Shown one piece after another: positions 47,955-60,230 of a stretch of 64,000 nt of DNA (within the stretch, counting starts at the first letter, position 1; each line of letters opens with the position of its first letter). This stretch comes from an uncultured Eubacteriales bacterium (GTDB lineage Bacteria > Bacillota > Clostridia > Christensenellales > CAG-917). Below the pieces are notes generated by a model. That model was not told the origin of the DNA. It saw only the letters and a list, made by a program, of their open reading frames with translations, and ran no database searches. The stretch covers positions 7,816 to 71,815 of the forward strand of contig URIZ01000006.1 of NCBI GenBank assembly GCA_900548005.1, in the 5' to 3' direction. Position numbers and translations under genes: made by a program.

Positions 47955-48644
47955 TTAGACAAAGAAACGTTTTTTGATTTCACTGCCCAGCACTTGTCTG
48001 CCGAAAATCAGCGAAAACGCAATCTCTGCTAGTCCCACGCCGAGCGTTGCAAGGGATGCGATCCAGTTGTAACCCGCATAGTGCAAAGACAAGCAATAGT
48101 TGAGCGGGAACAAGGCGATCATAAACAGCGCAAGCACAAAGGAGTGGAAGGCATATCTATACCACTTTTTGGTGATGACTGCGGTGAGCAACGTCACGAC
48201 GCTCAATGCGCCTGCCGCGCAAGGTATCACGTAAGAAAGCGCGATGTAGAACTTGCCAAAGTGCAAGCACACAAGAATCGCAAGGATCATCAGCCAGAAC
48301 GTCGATCTGTAATAGAACGTTCTAAGATCCGTGCGGAAAAAGACAAATTGTCCGATGACAAGCCAGAAGAATCCCACGGACGCAAGCCCGATGTAGATGA
48401 TCGAATACACCTTGGAGATCACCGACGCAAGCAGCAAGCCCACAAGCGTGAGCACGGAGAGCGCGATAAACACGTCTCTGACGGTCTTTCTTGCGTTACG
48501 TCTTTTTTCGTTGGCGTTGTAAGGGGCAAAATCAAAGTTTTCGTCTGTTTTGTCCGTTGCCTCGACAAGTCCTGCGCCGCAAAGGGGGCAGTTGTCGTCA
48601 TATTCGGGATGATACGTTTTGCAAAGTCTACAATATTTCATCAT
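47955..48644 (-). CDS. Zinc-ribbon polytopic membrane protein (DUF6320-like, from memory)
   Basis: 229-aa ORF with N-terminal CRLC...CPLCG followed by ~6 hydrophobic helices. Its start overlaps the stop of the upstream gene by 4 nt. Confidence 0.7.
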   Translation of the reverse strand: MMKYCRLCKTYHPEYDDNCPLCGAGLVEATDKTDENFDFAPYNANEKRRNARKTVRDVFIALSVLTLVGLLLASVISKVYSIIYIGLASVGFFWLVIGQFVFFRTDLRTFYYRSTFWLMILAILVCLHFGKFYIALSYVIPCAAGALSVVTLLTAVITKKWYRYAFHSFVLALFMIALFPLNYCLSLHYAGYNWIASLATLGVGLAEIAFSLIFGRQVLGSEIKKRFFV

Positions 48645-50116
48645 TTATCTCCGTTTGTTTCGATGTACACGTCAAGACCTTCCGCCGTCAACGCTCTGAC
48701 GAACTCTTTTTCAAGGTGTGAAGATTTGAAAGTCCTTGAGAACGTCAGCACGCACTCGTCTCCGAACGTCACGCCGGCAAGTTTGTAGCCCGAGTCCTTA
48801 GGCTCTTTCAAGCAAAACTCCACTCTGTCCACAATCTCGGACAATTCTTTGGGCGGATTTAGGCGTCCGTAGTTTGAAAAGTCCATAGACACGGCTTTGT
48901 TGTCCATGATATATTTTGTGATTTTGAGCCCTATATCTTTGAGCGCAAGCGGCACAAGCGCGATAAATTTGTTGCGTTCTTCACGCATATTCGCGTTGAC
49001 GTTCTCTTGCAAATATTTTTCGTTGAGTTGCTCTTTGAAGCACTCTTTGACCGCGTCCACGTATGCTTGGATGCCGCCGTCCACGCTGTCTTTGAGCGTC
49101 ACGTCAAGATAGAACGAGAAGTTGCGCACCGTGTCGGACGGGAAGAATTTGCGAAGATTGACAGGCACTCTTGCGTTGATGTCCTTGTTGCTGCCCTCTT
49201 TCTTGCGCATATCGAACATGATGCCGAATATGATCGCAAGCACGTATTCCGTGATGGTTGCGCCGTATTCTTTCGCCTTTTGGTTGAGCTTCGATGCGGA
49301 AGTGATCACGTGAGTCATCACGCCGTGGCGAGCCTTGGGGAGCTTGGGGATATAGGTGAAATTGATCTTTCTTTTTGCGTAGTCGTGCTTTTCGGCATAC
49401 ACTTGAAAGCTGTCTTCGATCTCGGTGGGAGTGGGCAAATCGCGATAGTCCTTTGCGCTCTTGTAGTCTTCGATTCGCTTGCCAGTCTTGATCTCGTAGT
49501 ATCTTGCAAGCAAACTCATAAGGAAAGTCGAGCCGCCCGTGCCGTCCGTGATGCTATGGAAAAACTCGCATCCGATTCTGTAATCGCTGTACACCACTCT
49601 GAAAAGATAGCGTTTGCCGTCAAGCGGAATGGGTTGGAACGAATAAAGGCTCTCTTTCTCCACTCTGGGCTTGAAAGGCAATCTCTCAAAATAGTACCAA
49701 AACGCGCCGCGCTTGATGGTGACCATAAGCGTGGGAAATCTCGGCACGAGATCGTCAAGCGCTTGTTGCAAAATCTCGCCGTCTACTCTCTCCTTCATCA
49801 CCGCCGCAAAGCGGAAGTGCGTGCTGTATTCGTTTGAAGAAGATGACGGATACACTTTTGCCGCGTTGTCGAGCTTGTACCACTCGGTCGGATCGAAAAT
49901 ACTCTCCTTCTTCTTGCTCTTCACCGTGCCTTCAACAAGAGAATCGTATTGAACGCCGAAATACCTTGAAATCGCTTCCAAAGTCTTTTGATCCACGTCT
50001 TCACCGTCTTCGGCTTTTTGGATCTCTTCAACGTCGATCGACAAGCGTTTTGCAAGCTCGTCAACCGTGAGATTCTTGTCTTCTCTGAGTCGTTTTATAG
50101 ATTTTGAATACTCCAT
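48641..50116 (-). CDS. XRE-type HTH fused to a condensation/alcohol-acetyltransferase-like acyltransferase domain
   Basis: 491-aa ORF. The N-terminal IKRLREDKNLTVDELAKRLSIDVEEIQKAEDG is an XRE-type HTH. The catalytic-type motif FHSITDGTGG (HxxxDG) sits at about residue 195. Confidence 0.75.
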   Translation of the reverse strand: MEYSKSIKRLREDKNLTVDELAKRLSIDVEEIQKAEDGEDVDQKTLEAISRYFGVQYDSLVEGTVKSKKKESIFDPTEWYKLDNAAKVYPSSSSNEYSTHFRFAAVMKERVDGEILQQALDDLVPRFPTLMVTIKRGAFWYYFERLPFKPRVEKESLYSFQPIPLDGKRYLFRVVYSDYRIGCEFFHSITDGTGGSTFLMSLLARYYEIKTGKRIEDYKSAKDYRDLPTPTEIEDSFQVYAEKHDYAKRKINFTYIPKLPKARHGVMTHVITSASKLNQKAKEYGATITEYVLAIIFGIMFDMRKKEGSNKDINARVPVNLRKFFPSDTVRNFSFYLDVTLKDSVDGGIQAYVDAVKECFKEQLNEKYLQENVNANMREERNKFIALVPLALKDIGLKITKYIMDNKAVSMDFSNYGRLNPPKELSEIVDRVEFCLKEPKDSGYKLAGVTFGDECVLTFSRTFKSSHLEKEFVRALTAEGLDVYIETNGDK

Positions 50117-50380
50117 ACTTCCATTCCGTCGAAAATTTATTTCGCATTGTGCAAATACTTATTAATACAAAAAGCTGACATAATGCATTTATTAGGACAC
50201 TATCTTAACACGCCAAGTCACTTTCGTCAAACGATTTGCCTTTGCCGTCCCGTTTTTATACTTTTATTACAACCCGTCCGACATCGCGCCCGCGCATAAT
50301 GCGCACACGTATATACACGTGTACGCATTTAAAAGGAATGTGCAATTTCAAAGACGAACACGAGCCACAACGGCATAATA

Positions 50381-50715
50381 ATTAATAATTAATAATGAAT
50401 AATTGTGGAAGGCGAAGCCTTATCCAAAAGCCTATTCGGAGCGTACTTATACACGGAATGTGCTTATTCGAAGTGAGCGTTCGCAAGGCGAACGCCGAGA
50501 TAAGCGCCGAGCAAGACGGTTGTACGAGAATGCGTGGCACTGTGTTGCGCAAGCCGCCACGCAGGCGAAGTGGCATAACAAGGGGACGATACTTTTCTAT
50601 GCGAGTGCCGACTGTCTTCCCCGTGAGCGATGTACACTTTTGTAGAGAAAGCACTCTATACGAGTGGTGGAAGAAATACCGGCGCGGACCGGAAAGATGG
50701 GGCAATTCTATTTAG
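50381..50715 (+). ncRNA. Conserved structured non-coding element, copy B (paralog of 16490-16865)
   Basis: It shares the 28/28 block ATTAATAATTAATAATGAATAATTGTGG, the 31/33 block GCGTACTTATACACGGAATGTGCTTATTCGAAG, and CGAACGCCGAG, TTGTACGAG and the GTGGCATAA...TCTATGCGAGTGC...TCCCC block with copy A. Hairpins AAGGC-GAA-GCCTT, GCGTTCG-CAAGG-CGAACGC, TGCGTGGC/GCCACGCA and TCTTCC/GGAAGA are present. Confidence 0.5.
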
Positions 50716-50816
50716 GGTTTCAAACGTTCACCCCTTGTAGAGCCGTGAACAATATGCGCCTTACGGCTGGATGTTTCGACAGGCTCAACATGACGATATG
50801 GAAAATTTGATACAGC

Positions 50817-50866
50817 ACCCGAGCATGCGTAGCGGAGCGTACACGTAGTACGTGAGCAACACACGC
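50817..50866 (+). repeat. 50-bp perfect direct repeat, copy 1 (GTAC-hairpin module)
   Basis: ACCCGAGCATGCGTAGCGGAGCGTACACGTAGTACGTGAGCAACACACGC, identical to 51175-51224. Confidence 0.95.
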
Positions 50867-50870
50867 ACAG

Positions 50871-51035
50871 CCGGAACAAAAGCCGTCATCGCGGCAACGG
50901 CATCGCTTGCTTACAAGCAACGCCGAAAGCCGTATTAGGCTTGTTGTTCTGCTAACCGCGCCGAAAATCTTTGCTATCAGTTTAGTTACGGACAAAAACT
51001 TCTGCCGCAATTTCGCAAGATTGTCGGCTTGGTGT
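50871..51035 (+). repeat. 165-nt repeat module, copy 1
   Basis: It aligns by eye end-to-end with the reverse complement of 58391-58551. Differences are scattered substitutions and one 3-nt indel. Confidence 0.9.
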
Positions 51036-51174
51036 TTAGATTGGGTGGGACACCCACAAATGCGTCCCTTGCCGAAAAGCAAACGGCAAGAGCCAAGGAA
51101 GACGAGAACGAGTAGCGGAATGTACTTTGTACCAAGAGATAATCAGACACAGAGCAAGCGGCGAAAGTCAAGGA

Positions 51175-51224
51175 ACCCGAGCATGCGTAGCGGAGCGTAC
51201 ACGTAGTACGTGAGCAACACACGC
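51175..51224 (+). repeat. 50-bp perfect direct repeat, copy 2
   Basis: Identical to 50817-50866. The two copies start 358 bp apart. Confidence 0.95.
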
Positions 51225-51238
51225 GCAGGGTGACGAAG

Positions 51239-51269
51239 AAAAAAGCACGGCAAGAAATTGCCGTGCTTT
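51239..51269. terminator. Terminator after rpsI (hairpin usable in both directions)
   Basis: AGCACGGCAA-GAAA-TTGCCGTGCT. It is flanked by A6 on one side and TTTGTTTT on the other. Confidence 0.7.
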
Positions 51270-51294
51270 GTTTTCGTCGCTTGAATGCGTCTGA

Positions 51295-51705
51295 TTATCT
51301 CTTGGAGAATTGGGGTGCTTTACGAGCCTTATGCAATCCGTATTTCTTGCGTTCTTTGGCTCTGGGGTCACGAGTGAGATATCCTTCTTTCTTGAGGATA
51401 GCTCTGTATGCTTCACTGTCTGCAACGCAGAGTGCGCGAGCGATGCCGTGACGGATTGCGCCTGCTTGACCGGTGTAGCCGCCGCCGTACACGTTGACGA
51501 GAACGTCAAACTTGTCGGAAGTGCCGGTTGCCACGAGCGGTTGATTGACGATGAATTTCATCGTGTCAAGCGGGAAGTACTCGTCGAGAGTGCGTTTGTT
51601 GATGACGATATTGCCGTCGCCGGGGATAAGGCGAACTCTTGCGATTGCCGTCTTTCTTCTGCCGGTGCCGAGATATTGAACTTTCTTGGTTTTCTTAGTA
51701 GCCAT
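51295..51705 (-). CDS. rpsI: 30S ribosomal protein S9
   Basis: 136-aa [17 protein letters not shown] and the C-terminal [17 protein letters not shown] are present. Confidence 0.97.
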
Positions 51706-58063: not shown

Positions 58064-58390
58064 CGCCGCAAAATTTGTATCTTAAACCACAAACCCGACA
58101 TAAGTAAACATTGTCGAAACATTCGGGTGTGGGTGTCCCACCCTATCTGTCATGTTGTCAATACAAAGCGGAGCAACTTGCTTGCAAGGGTTGCGTAGCG
58201 TATGTATTCACGTAGCAACGCCTTTGAAAAAGGCGAAACCGCAGGTTTCTATGCGCAAGCATAGCAGTTGCGAGTAGCCTGCCGAAACATCCAGCCGTAA
58301 GGCGCATATCTTGCTTTTTCTTTTCGCTACGCTAGATTCTTCGATTCTCTCAGAATGACAAGGAAAAATTTAGAATTTCACCGCTTAAAA

Positions 58391-58551
58391 ATACCAAGCC
58401 GACAATCTCGCGAAATTGAGGCAGGAGTTTTTGTCCGTGTCTGAACTGTCAAAGATTTTCGGCGCGGTTAGCAGAACAACAAGCCTAATGCGGCTCTCGG
58501 CGTTGCTTGCAAGCAAGCTATGCCGTTGCCGCAATGACGGCTTTTGTTCGG
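58391..58551 (-). repeat. 165-nt repeat module, copy 2 (inverted relative to 50871-51035)
   Basis: Its reverse complement aligns with 50871-51035. Confidence 0.9.
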
Positions 58552-58560
58552 AACAAGAAA

Positions 58561-58621
58561 GGCACGGCTTGAAACAAAACCCAACGTACATTTAGTACGT
58601 GATTTTGGAGCAAGCCGTGCC
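58561..58621. repeat. GTAC-hairpin module H-b
   Basis: 11-bp closing stem GGCACGGCTTG/CAAGCCGTGCC. Apical ACGTAC-ATTTA-GTACGT. It is preceded on the plus strand by GAACAAGAAA. Confidence 0.8.
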
Positions 58622-58682
58622 TGACAAAGTTATTCGCAGTTTGGTGTATAAACGAGCGCGATATTTAGATGAAGAACAAGAA

Positions 58683-58745
58683 AGAGCCACGCTAACGGCA
58701 ACCCTAATGTACACATAGTACATGAGTTGACGGGAGCGTGGCTCT
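58683..58745. repeat. GTAC-hairpin module H-a
   Basis: 11-bp closing stem AGAGCCACGCT/AGCGTGGCTCT. Apical ATGTAC-ACATA-GTACAT. It is preceded on the plus strand by GAACAAGAAA. Confidence 0.8.
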
Positions 58746-58775
58746 GCCGCAGTCATTCGCTAAATAGCGCGCTCG

Positions 58776-60230
58776 TTAGTCGCGCTCGTGAGCAACGTTG
58801 AAATCCTCATAATAATTCAATGGCACGCAATCAAACGTATTGTCTTTCTTCAACTCGATGCGGGTGCAACCGCGTTGAGAGTGCTTTTTGAAGATGCCGG
58901 GATAGGCGAGATAGTCAACGGACATGCCGTAGGTAAGACGGATTGAACGGTCTGCTCCTGCGGGCGTGTAGTTGACGGAGAAGTTGTTGTAGTGGTCGTG
59001 ACCGCAGAACACGCCTTGCATGCCGTGGGTGAGGCCCGTTTCAAACAACTCGTCGGATCTGCTGCCGCAGAAGACGCCGTAGGTGCGAACGCCGTTCTTT
59101 TTCTTGTCGGTCTCGCCCATTTTGCCGTAGATAAACTCGGTCTTGCCGCGCTCTGTTTCAACGGTTTTGCCTTTGGTCATGGTTTCGCCGCTGTCGATGA
59201 CGTTTGCCCAAGCGTTGCGGTACTCTTCAAGCGGAATGTGGAAGAATGCAATGTTGTTGACGGTGTTATTGTTGTTGTGGTCTTTGGACAATCTTTCGAT
59301 CTCGGTTGCGTACCAATCGATTTGGCATTGGTGGATGTTGTCATACTTCCACGCCATTCCGAAATAGTCGCCGTCCGTGTAGCTGTGGCTGTCGAAGGTC
59401 ACAACCGTTTGATTGATAGAGCCGTCGCTGTTCTTGACCACGATCATGTCGTTGCCAAAGCCGCGAGCGTCATTGCCGATGTAGTCCTTCTTGTCGCAGA
59501 AACCGCGGCGGAAAAGGCAATACTTGAAACCTGCATTCTCATAGTAATCGCAGATTTCGTCACGGGAGTAGAGGCTGTAAAGCTCGGTGTCGTGGTTGCC
59601 GAACGCAAACGTCCAATATACGCCGAGAGTTTCCATCATGTTGGAGAAGATCTTGGTTGCGTTGAGATTGTTGAACGTACCCGATTGCACAGGCACGGGG
59701 TATGCAATGTCACCGGTGACAACCACAAGGTCGGGTTGCTCTTGTCTGATCATGGTGGCAACCGCGTTCATAGCCCACGCGTCTTTTTGGTGAGTGAAAC
59801 TGCCGCCGCCGATATGTACGTCGGTGAATTGCAAGATCTTGAATTCTCTGCCGTCTTCCTTGGTGAACGTCCAATATCCGTTGCCGCTTTCCTCGGGCTT
59901 TTGGGGCGCGAGTTGCGTGTGAGCGGTGTATTCGACCTTGCTGTAGGAAGTGGCTTGTTGAATAAGACCTTTTGTGCCGACTGCCGTTGCAATTGCGCAG
60001 CCGCTGAAGAAGATCACGATTGCAAGCACAATGCTGCCCGTGATGATGAGAGCTTTTGCCGTGCGTTTTTTCTTTTGTTCGGGAGTGAGTTGCTTTTTGG
60101 CTTTTTTGCCTTTCTTTTGCGCTTTCTTCTCTTCTTGATCGGAAAGGATGCCTTCTTTTTCGAGCGTTTCGTCCGCAGTGGCGGTTTCGTCTTGCTCGGT
60201 GGCGATTTCGTTTTTGATTTCGTCGCTCAT
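58776..60230 (-). CDS. Membrane-anchored metallophosphoesterase (calcineurin-like)
   Basis: 484-aa ORF with a K/E-rich N-terminus, one TM helix, then FTDVHIG, VTGDIAYP, FGNHD and GHDH motifs. Confidence 0.85.
   Translation of the reverse strand: MSDEIKNEIATEQDETATADETLEKEGILSDQEEKKAQKKGKKAKKQLTPEQKKKRTAKALIITGSIVLAIVIFFSGCAIATAVGTKGLIQQATSYSKVEYTAHTQLAPQKPEESGNGYWTFTKEDGREFKILQFTDVHIGGGSFTHQKDAWAMNAVATMIRQEQPDLVVVTGDIAYPVPVQSGTFNNLNATKIFSNMMETLGVYWTFAFGNHDTELYSLYSRDEICDYYENAGFKYCLFRRGFCDKKDYIGNDARGFGNDMIVVKNSDGSINQTVVTFDSHSYTDGDYFGMAWKYDNIHQCQIDWYATEIERLSKDHNNNNTVNNIAFFHIPLEEYRNAWANVIDSGETMTKGKTVETERGKTEFIYGKMGETDKKKNGVRTYGVFCGSRSDELFETGLTHGMQGVFCGHDHYNNFSVNYTPAGADRSIRLTYGMSVDYLAYPGIFKKHSQRGCTRIELKKDNTFDCVPLNYYEDFNVAHERD

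Follow-up and report, generated by a model that had tools for sequence, protein, structure and literature searches.

The 1.18-kb gap between the stop codon of rpsI and the start of an XRE-family gene in G000, the metagenome-assembled genome (MAG) of an uncultured human-gut Christensenellales-like bacterium, is best explained, with a probability of about 75%, as a 'safe-harbour' pile-up of non-coding hairpin repeat families confined to one subclade, in which an array of H units holds an M4–M5 element and is accompanied by further modules. The repeats are uncatalogued, new families of BOX/BIME-like interspersed mosaic repeats, and the 'perfect direct repeat' that marks the gap has an ordinary explanation among them. 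The pile-up would consist of three layers: an H-unit array anchored on the rpsI stop codon, whose rpsI unit would also carry the intrinsic terminator of the operon, a 185-nt two-domain M4–M5 element inside this array, and the modules X, M3a, M2, and M1 on the promoter-distal side.

The rpsI-downstream gap and its modules

The window, i.e., the whole stretch of 64,000 nt that was analysed and to which the positions given below refer, corresponds to C6:7816–71815 of a 1.57-Mb genome of ca. 48% G+C, assembled from short reads into 26 contigs whose breaks fall in the repeats. rpsI (51295–51705, minus strand) codes for the 30S ribosomal protein S9 (NF001099 match, E = 1e-55), and the XRE-family gene (48641–50116, minus strand) lies on the far side of the gap, with a promoter-like site at 50230–50202 (minus strand) found in a site scan. 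The preliminary description had placed a repeat-built stretch at 50716–51294; such a stretch does exist, but it starts already at ca. 50330. In whole-genome blastn, nearly all of 50330–51058, as well as of 58125–58778 at a second locus, consists of dispersed modules, each found 8–57 times.

On the plus strand, the first of them is M1 (50330–50410, blast depth 15–19), a partial copy of a dispersed module comprising a start motif (TAAAAGGAATGTGC..TTCAAAG) and an AT-rich AATAATTAATAAT tail, the latter recurring to the left of several M4 copies. It is followed by M2–M3a (50427–50750, blast depth 20–42), one copy of a structured dispersed repeat of ca. 325 nt, which has an orthologous copy of 92% identity in the relative G001 and is absent in G184 according to the locus comparison. 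The X module (50751–50812; M3b, module iv of the preliminary description), a hairpin of ca. 60 nt with 22–23 copies, abuts exactly the distal hairpin copy DR1, and the same X/hairpin junction is found in G001. DR1 (50817–50870), assigned to the truncated distal H unit as its alpha-type apical hairpin, is identical at 54 of 54 positions to the alpha-unit hairpin of the relatives L054 and L055. Next lies M4 (50874–51037), a dispersed element of two hairpin domains with a sharp 5' edge and 22 near-full copies; it had been described as a 165-nt block recurring in an inverted orientation, of which the recurrence is correct and the true length is 164 nt. M4 at the rpsI locus is antisense to the flanking genes, its minority orientation. 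M5 (51038–51058), a GGGTGGGACACCCAC hairpin with 27 exact motif sites in the genome, is the 3' end module of the M4–M5 unit and at this locus is cut off ahead of its usual CCCGA continuation.

The segment 51059–51131 is a remnant of a beta-type H unit. It matches the orthologous left arm of G184 at 95.5% and that of L055 at 91%; in L055 the matching arm runs on into a full beta unit ending at rpsI. The remnant retains the junction motif AATGCGTCC, the left-arm hairpin CTTGCCG-AAAAGCAAA-CGGCAAG (51069–51091), and the apex GTAC-TTT-GTAC (51122–51132), both hairpins having been correctly read from the sequence before. A complete alpha-type H unit (51132–51305, minus strand), recognised by its fold and by the inverted repeat I9, sits on the rpsI stop codon. 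The comparison of the modules with the whole genome, proposed in the preliminary description, found all of them dispersed except the 54-mer of the direct repeat and 51060–51174, a segment unique in the genome.

The motif CGGAGCGTAC occurs both in the 5' region of M2 (TTCGGAGCGTACTTATACACGGAATGTGC, 50436–50465) and in the H apex, on its left side (GCGGAGCGTAC). It is precisely at CGGAGCGTAC that L054 and L055 pass from an M2-like start to an H apex (L054:6075–6040), and the position of this fusion suggests short shared motifs as sites of module exchange.

The second locus is arranged around an M4...M5 unit in the usual orientation (58128–58549, minus strand; inverted repeats I1, I2, I4, and I7; locus 48 in the set of module strings). 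The inverted copies reported there are real, M4, M5, and X all recurring with 88–97% identity: 50874–50973 matches 58450–58549 at 95%, 50978–51037 matches 58389–58448 at 88%, M5 (51038–51058) matches 58128–58148 at 95% (I7), and the X segment 50752–50785 matches 58276–58309 at 97% (I4). The reported difference in module order between the two loci also holds, because at the second locus extra modules, B_b (58310–58388), X (58276–58309), and B_a (58149–58275), sit between the M4 end (58389–58549, minus strand) and the M5 end (58128–58148, minus strand) of the unit. Beyond M4 lie Hs (58557–58624, plus strand), a small H-type hairpin, and a 127-nt H palindrome (58651–58777, plus strand) placed on the stop codon of a gene at 58776–60230 (minus strand), both with a GTAC-N5-GTAC apex like that of the direct repeat; the two are covered by the inverted repeats I17 and I3 and by the direct family D3, and the fold predicted here has an energy of -64.5 kcal/mol and a z-score of -7.1. 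Read on the minus strand, the locus is thus H - Hs - M4 - [B_b, X, B_a] - M5. In the genome, M4 runs straight into the GTGGGACACCCAC hairpin of M5 in 15 copies, forming the 185-nt unit, and in seven others it is followed by AAGCGGTAAAATTC, which is B_b in reverse complement; four of these seven regain M5 after 2–3 inner modules. At the rpsI locus M4–M5 is contiguous and runs opposite to the H units, and the X next to it comes from a different composite.

The direct repeat and the H units

The direct repeat noted in the gap is real. Its copies, DR1 (50817–50870) and DR2 (51175–51228), start 358 nt apart (family D1), and the repeat is 54 nt long with one mismatch, its first 50 nt being perfect. 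The 50-mer has two matches in the whole genome, both local, and is not dispersed. On the evidence of the folds and alignments described below, each copy of the 54-mer is the apical hairpin of its own alpha-type H unit; the proximal unit is intact and the distal one truncated, the left arm of the latter having been replaced by X and its terminator branch by M4–M5.

Palindromic, and either branched or long, the H units share a GTAC-N5-GTAC apex, occur in tandem arrays, and copy the last bases of the host gene in their outer stem. With its apex, CGTAC-ACGTA-GTACG, the 54-mer bears the signature of the H palindrome, the commonest repeat of the genome (family D3). The motif YGTAC-N5-GTACR has 81 sites in the genome, 77 of them intergenic, and stands in tandem (2–3 copies) at 16 of 58 loci. 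In 48 of 50 cases H lies directly against a gene 3' end, always in one orientation. In the proximal H unit the 20-bp outer stem is formed by 51132–51151 pairing with 51286–51305 (I9, 95% complementary), the latter arm including the last 8 coding bases of rpsI and its stop codon. The stem contains an inverted copy of this gene end (CCAAGAGATAA vs TTATCTCTTGG), and in the tandem arrays of relatives, e.g., in G003, every unit has its own copy of the gene end.

The rpsI H unit lies tight against the 3' end of the coding sequence and comprises a long duplex with a U-rich tail. The fold predicted for 51132–51305 on the rpsI strand (-91.9 kcal/mol, z-score -12.1) is a three-way junction, one branch of which is the predicted intrinsic terminator of the operon (51232–51278), while the second, DR2 (51175–51228), is exactly the 54-mer. 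Terminator-like hairpins are found on both strands of 51242–51269; that on the minus strand (51269–51242), a 12-bp stem followed by TTTCTTCGTC and lying ca. 25 nt past the rpsI stop codon, has the form of an intrinsic terminator, with a GC-rich hairpin and a U tract on the strand of the gene. Judging from this prediction, the proximal H unit is probably the intrinsic terminator of the rplM–rpsI transcript, which it would terminate and whose 3' end it would protect.

Alleles of the locus in relatives

An H unit is kept behind rpsI in 12 congeners, in numbers from 1 to 4, several of them having 2–4 tandem units, and the alpha and beta types of the unit are distinguished by their hairpin and terminator sequences. 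Five alleles were compared. In G000 the order is X - DR1 - CCG+M4+M5 - beta remnant - alpha unit (DR2) - rpsI. L054 (ca. 96% identical) and L055, both metagenome contigs, have a diverged unit - alpha unit - rpsI and a diverged unit - alpha unit - beta unit - rpsI, respectively, and the alpha unit of each contains one 54-mer identical to DR1. In the complete genome G184 the promoter region (96%) is followed by 47 nt, a single beta unit, and rpsI, and the locus holds no counterpart of 50315–51058. G001 (ca. 91%) has M2 - M3 - X - single hairpin - beta terminator - rpsI, without the 358-nt unit. The alignment regarded as decisive is that of L055 with G000: in the former the 54-mer is followed by a 57-nt terminator branch, AATGTGTCC, and the beta left arm, and in the latter the 54-mer of DR1 is followed by CCG+M4+M5 (188 nt), AATGCGTCC, and the beta left arm (51059–51131). 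DR1 is therefore the hairpin left over from a distal alpha unit. The single hairpin of G001 is a hybrid, with 18 nt of an alpha left arm (ACCCGAGCATGCGTAGCG) followed by a beta core, and its allele would be the product expected from recombination between the left arms GCGTAGCG and GAGTAGCG of two units. Taken together, the alleles show that the polymorphism of the locus among relatives matches what recombination between homologous hairpins would generate.

These comparisons bear on the origin of the 358-bp unit (one repeat plus the 308-bp insert), at which the preliminary description, from a perfect 50-mer standing next to modules with scattered substitutions, read a recent duplication or insertion event. 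A mobile element or other recent insertion, with the 50–54-bp repeat as its target-site duplication, would account for the two copies differing at only 1 of 54 positions and for G001, where the unit is missing and the repeat stands only once at the corresponding position; the absence of the unit from relatives is indeed the outcome of the strain comparison. On the other side, 51059–51174 is orthologous in G184, G010, G018, G016, and L055 and there adjoins the hairpin and rpsI; the unit occurs nowhere else in the genome, only its M4–M5 part being repeated; and the other M4 copies have no flanking duplications. The G001 copy is not an untouched empty site but an alpha/beta hybrid, as a deletion between hairpins yields. 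Known target-site duplications are far shorter than 54 bp, and the length of the repeat also speaks against an insertion. The alleles of the relatives thus make a part of the '308-bp insert' ancestral, contiguous elsewhere with the repeat and rpsI, and the 358-nt polymorphism a matter of recombination within the H-unit array. Nor does the near-perfect repeat require a very recent event, because L054 and L055 carry the identical 54-mer. An insertion of the 358-bp unit is accordingly hardly credible. The target-site duplication as an origin of the 54-mer is rejected on the comparisons with G001, G184, L054, and L055.

The doubled hairpin might also be an assembly artefact, two strain alleles having been joined through the shared 50 nt in a short-read metagenome. 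The genome is a 26-contig MAG with contigs ending in these very repeats, and single-copy alleles are present in other samples. But the copies differ at position 51 and beyond (CAGCC vs CAGGG), and therefore each join needs its own supporting reads; no other allele contains the junction of the beta remnant with the alpha unit (GTACTTTGTACC|AAGAGATAATC), which means that the contig is no simple splice of the known ones; and reads of ordinary length exceed a repeat of 50 nt. Such an artefact is considered very unlikely.

Recombination among H units and modules remains the preferred account of the locus. Its history would be one of duplicated H units and replaced modules, with homologous hairpin cores, and short motifs shared at the bases of hairpins, as the points between which recombination or template switching took place; the order of duplication, replacement, and deletion is inferred from the five alleles. 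By the same route the locus would have kept changing, one relative having a deletion product and another lacking the whole mosaic.

Genome-wide distribution and turnover

A self-comparison of the genome (depth of at least 5) reveals ca. 124 repeat loci occupying 2.8% of its 1.57 Mb, ca. 30 of them at contig ends. With at least 60% of a module covered, H has 54 copies, B_b 33, M4 28, X/M3b 23, Hs 21, M2 20, M3a 17, and M5 14 (27 exact motif sites); counted as motifs, exact or with up to 3 mismatches, GGTGGGACACCCAC is found 27 times, module iv 22, the M4 core 25, and the 50-mer 2 times. Repeat loci are enriched in convergent gaps (28/92, vs 12.5% of all gaps) and depleted in divergent ones (7/92). 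In 19 of 23 copies M4 points the same way as the gene upstream of it; the orientation counts rest on a codon-usage-scored gene caller and are approximate. Four head-to-tail M4–M5 copies with a period of ca. 188 nt lie at C1:996747–997448 of G184 (CP091723.1), an array showing that tandem amplification of M4–M5 is possible.

M4 occurs in 26 of the 52 species of the genus and in none of the 150 other genomes of the order. The rpsI H unit and M4 were both scored in 23 species, of which 12 have the two together and 11 neither. In the rpsI–rplM tree the positive species are all close relatives, and the negative ones are placed in clades of their own with good support, which makes the repeat set a trait of one subclade. 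Within it the turnover is rapid: between G000 and G184 the length is kept (within 30 nt) at 9 of 72 repeat loci vs 240 of 396 repeat-free gaps, and the module strings at orthologous loci differ wholesale. No clean pairs of filled and empty sites were found between these two genomes, since the 'empty' sites examined hold replaced or diverged sequence, or an AT-rich stretch common to both, and are free of a precise excision or insertion scar. At C14:20702–21143, G000 has a structured repeat of ca. 440 nt, M2-like at its start and of the GGGGAAAGTTG type at its end, which G184 lacks; it adjoins an AT-rich AATAATTAATAATT stretch that both genomes have, and this stretch may be a preferred target or an end of the element.

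Structure of M4 and a possible function in RNA

The predicted fold of M4 comprises two hairpin domains with 43 pairs, 16 of which display compensatory double changes in 48 copies from five genomes, and this covariation shows selection for, or copying of, the folded form, be it DNA or RNA. The indications of the strand conflict: the fold energy is lower on the minus strand, and the fixed G-U pairs are on the plus strand. The ends of M4 pair imperfectly, AAGCCGTC with GTCGGCTT. When M4 is read antisense, as it lies at the rpsI locus, its first hairpin followed by TTTTGTTCC scores as terminator-like (50882–50901, minus strand).

Such features could mean that the modules act as functional RNA, be it as stabilisers or terminators in 3'-untranslated regions, as small RNAs, or as domains of one long structured non-coding RNA. 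The predicted folds are strong (z-scores of -12 and -7), the compensatory pairs and invariant G-U pairs of M4 on the plus strand fit a transcribed molecule, M4 and H tend to be co-oriented with the upstream gene (19/23 and 48/50), and terminator-like hairpins occur within the modules. Against this, Rfam gives no match even at permissive thresholds, and M4 at the rpsI locus is antisense to the only evident direction of transcription. The content of the locus is wholly different among G000, G001, G184, L054, and L055, although the flanking genes are 90–96% identical; this wholesale difference and the reversed M4 speak against the earlier suggestion that the modules are domains of one large multi-hairpin RNA, and the many permutations in which the modules occur leave no one long RNA conserved. 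The orientation bias of M4 can be a consequence of the fixed linkage between M4 and the stop-anchored H units, and termination by the proximal H unit already belongs to the pile-up reading. A role of the modules as functional RNA is therefore judged improbable. Under the pile-up reading the rest of the mosaic is most likely selfish or neutral DNA, tolerated between the terminator and the next promoter, and any function of the modules apart from termination would probably be incidental.

Comparison with known repeat families

The preliminary description likened the modules to BOX-like modular intergenic repeats of an unrecognised family, and this has been borne out, no catalogued match having been found. 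BOX elements of Streptococcus pneumoniae and S. suis are composites of boxA, variable boxB/boxD, and boxC (Croucher et al. 2011, PMC3049150), in which discrete modules are combined in 'particular permutations' (PMC3049150). In the M4...M5 strings, too, conserved end modules bracket inner ones in variable permutations, here with 0–3 inner modules; stable stem-loops are predicted if the repeats are transcribed, the repeats are enriched downstream of coding sequences, and the mobilising enzyme is not known in either case. The modules described here are longer than those of BOX (M4 with its two domains has 164 nt) and are mixed with at least three other families, and their host is an uncultured Christensenellales-like lineage, not a streptococcus. 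The comparison is one of descriptions, and we know of no sequence relation between these modules and BOX.

BIMEs and REPs of Enterobacteria and Pseudomonas are mobilised by RAYT Y1 transposases (PMC3184786). Like them, the repeats described here are extragenic, strain-variable mosaics of palindromic units and short motifs, located mostly past gene 3' ends. They differ in the size of the unit, 54–185 nt as opposed to the short, GC-rich, imperfect palindromes of 20–40 nt, in the anchoring of H units on stop codons, and in the lack of a Y1/RAYT gene in G000, in the complete genome G184, and in eight other repeat-rich congeners. With MITEs such as the Correia/NEMIS elements of Neisseria they have in common a small size, a non-coding and highly base-paired sequence, a high copy number, and an intergenic location, but they have neither target-site duplications nor clear terminal inverted repeats matching an IS, and no transposase of the families searched accompanies them.

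In the window, the only match to Rfam 15 at the gathering level is tRNA-Ala; permissive scans of both loci gave chance-level matches only, none of them near the gathering score of a covariance model, so the Rfam search proposed in the preliminary description matched no catalogued family. Phage and plasmid collections hold nothing similar to the repeats, and a search of the literature on repeats in Christensenellales found nothing.

Spread of the modules

G000 contains no Y1/RAYT (PF01797), TnpB, reverse transcriptase, IS110, or rve genes; the transposase search covered Y1, TnpB, IS110, and rve, the last being the only DDE family among them. Y1/RAYT is likewise missing from nine of ten repeat-rich congeners, G184 included. 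Since MAGs can lose IS elements, the absence of transposases counts for less in G000 than in the complete genome G184. The sole Y1 gene (IS200/IS605-type) among the ten congeners, G186:C92:182–538 (L168), is in a 72%-complete MAG. At M4 copies no target-site duplication was found, the flanks of 22 copies being mutually unrelated, and within the gene families searched neither an enzyme nor a process came to light that would carry the modules to new loci.

A bolder reading, held with considerable reserve and rated well below the pile-up, is that H, M4–M5, and the X/B modules belong to an undescribed transposase-independent mobile hairpin DNA system that arose once in the gut Christensenellales subclade. 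The modules would spread and nest at hairpin bases, such as the fixed 164|165 junction of M4–M5 and the terminator hairpins, by means of single-strand fold-back or template-switch synthesis, or of a structure-specific host enzyme.

At the rpsI site, the direct repeat and the shuffled modules are explained without a new mobile element. One clade of abundant uncultured human-gut bacteria holds dense structured intergenic repeats with a fast turnover, at which short-read assemblies break and by which the 3' ends of genes are remodelled. They are useful as strain markers and also give rise to errors in annotation and binning. With no known transposase accompanying them, the way in which they spread is a testable question.
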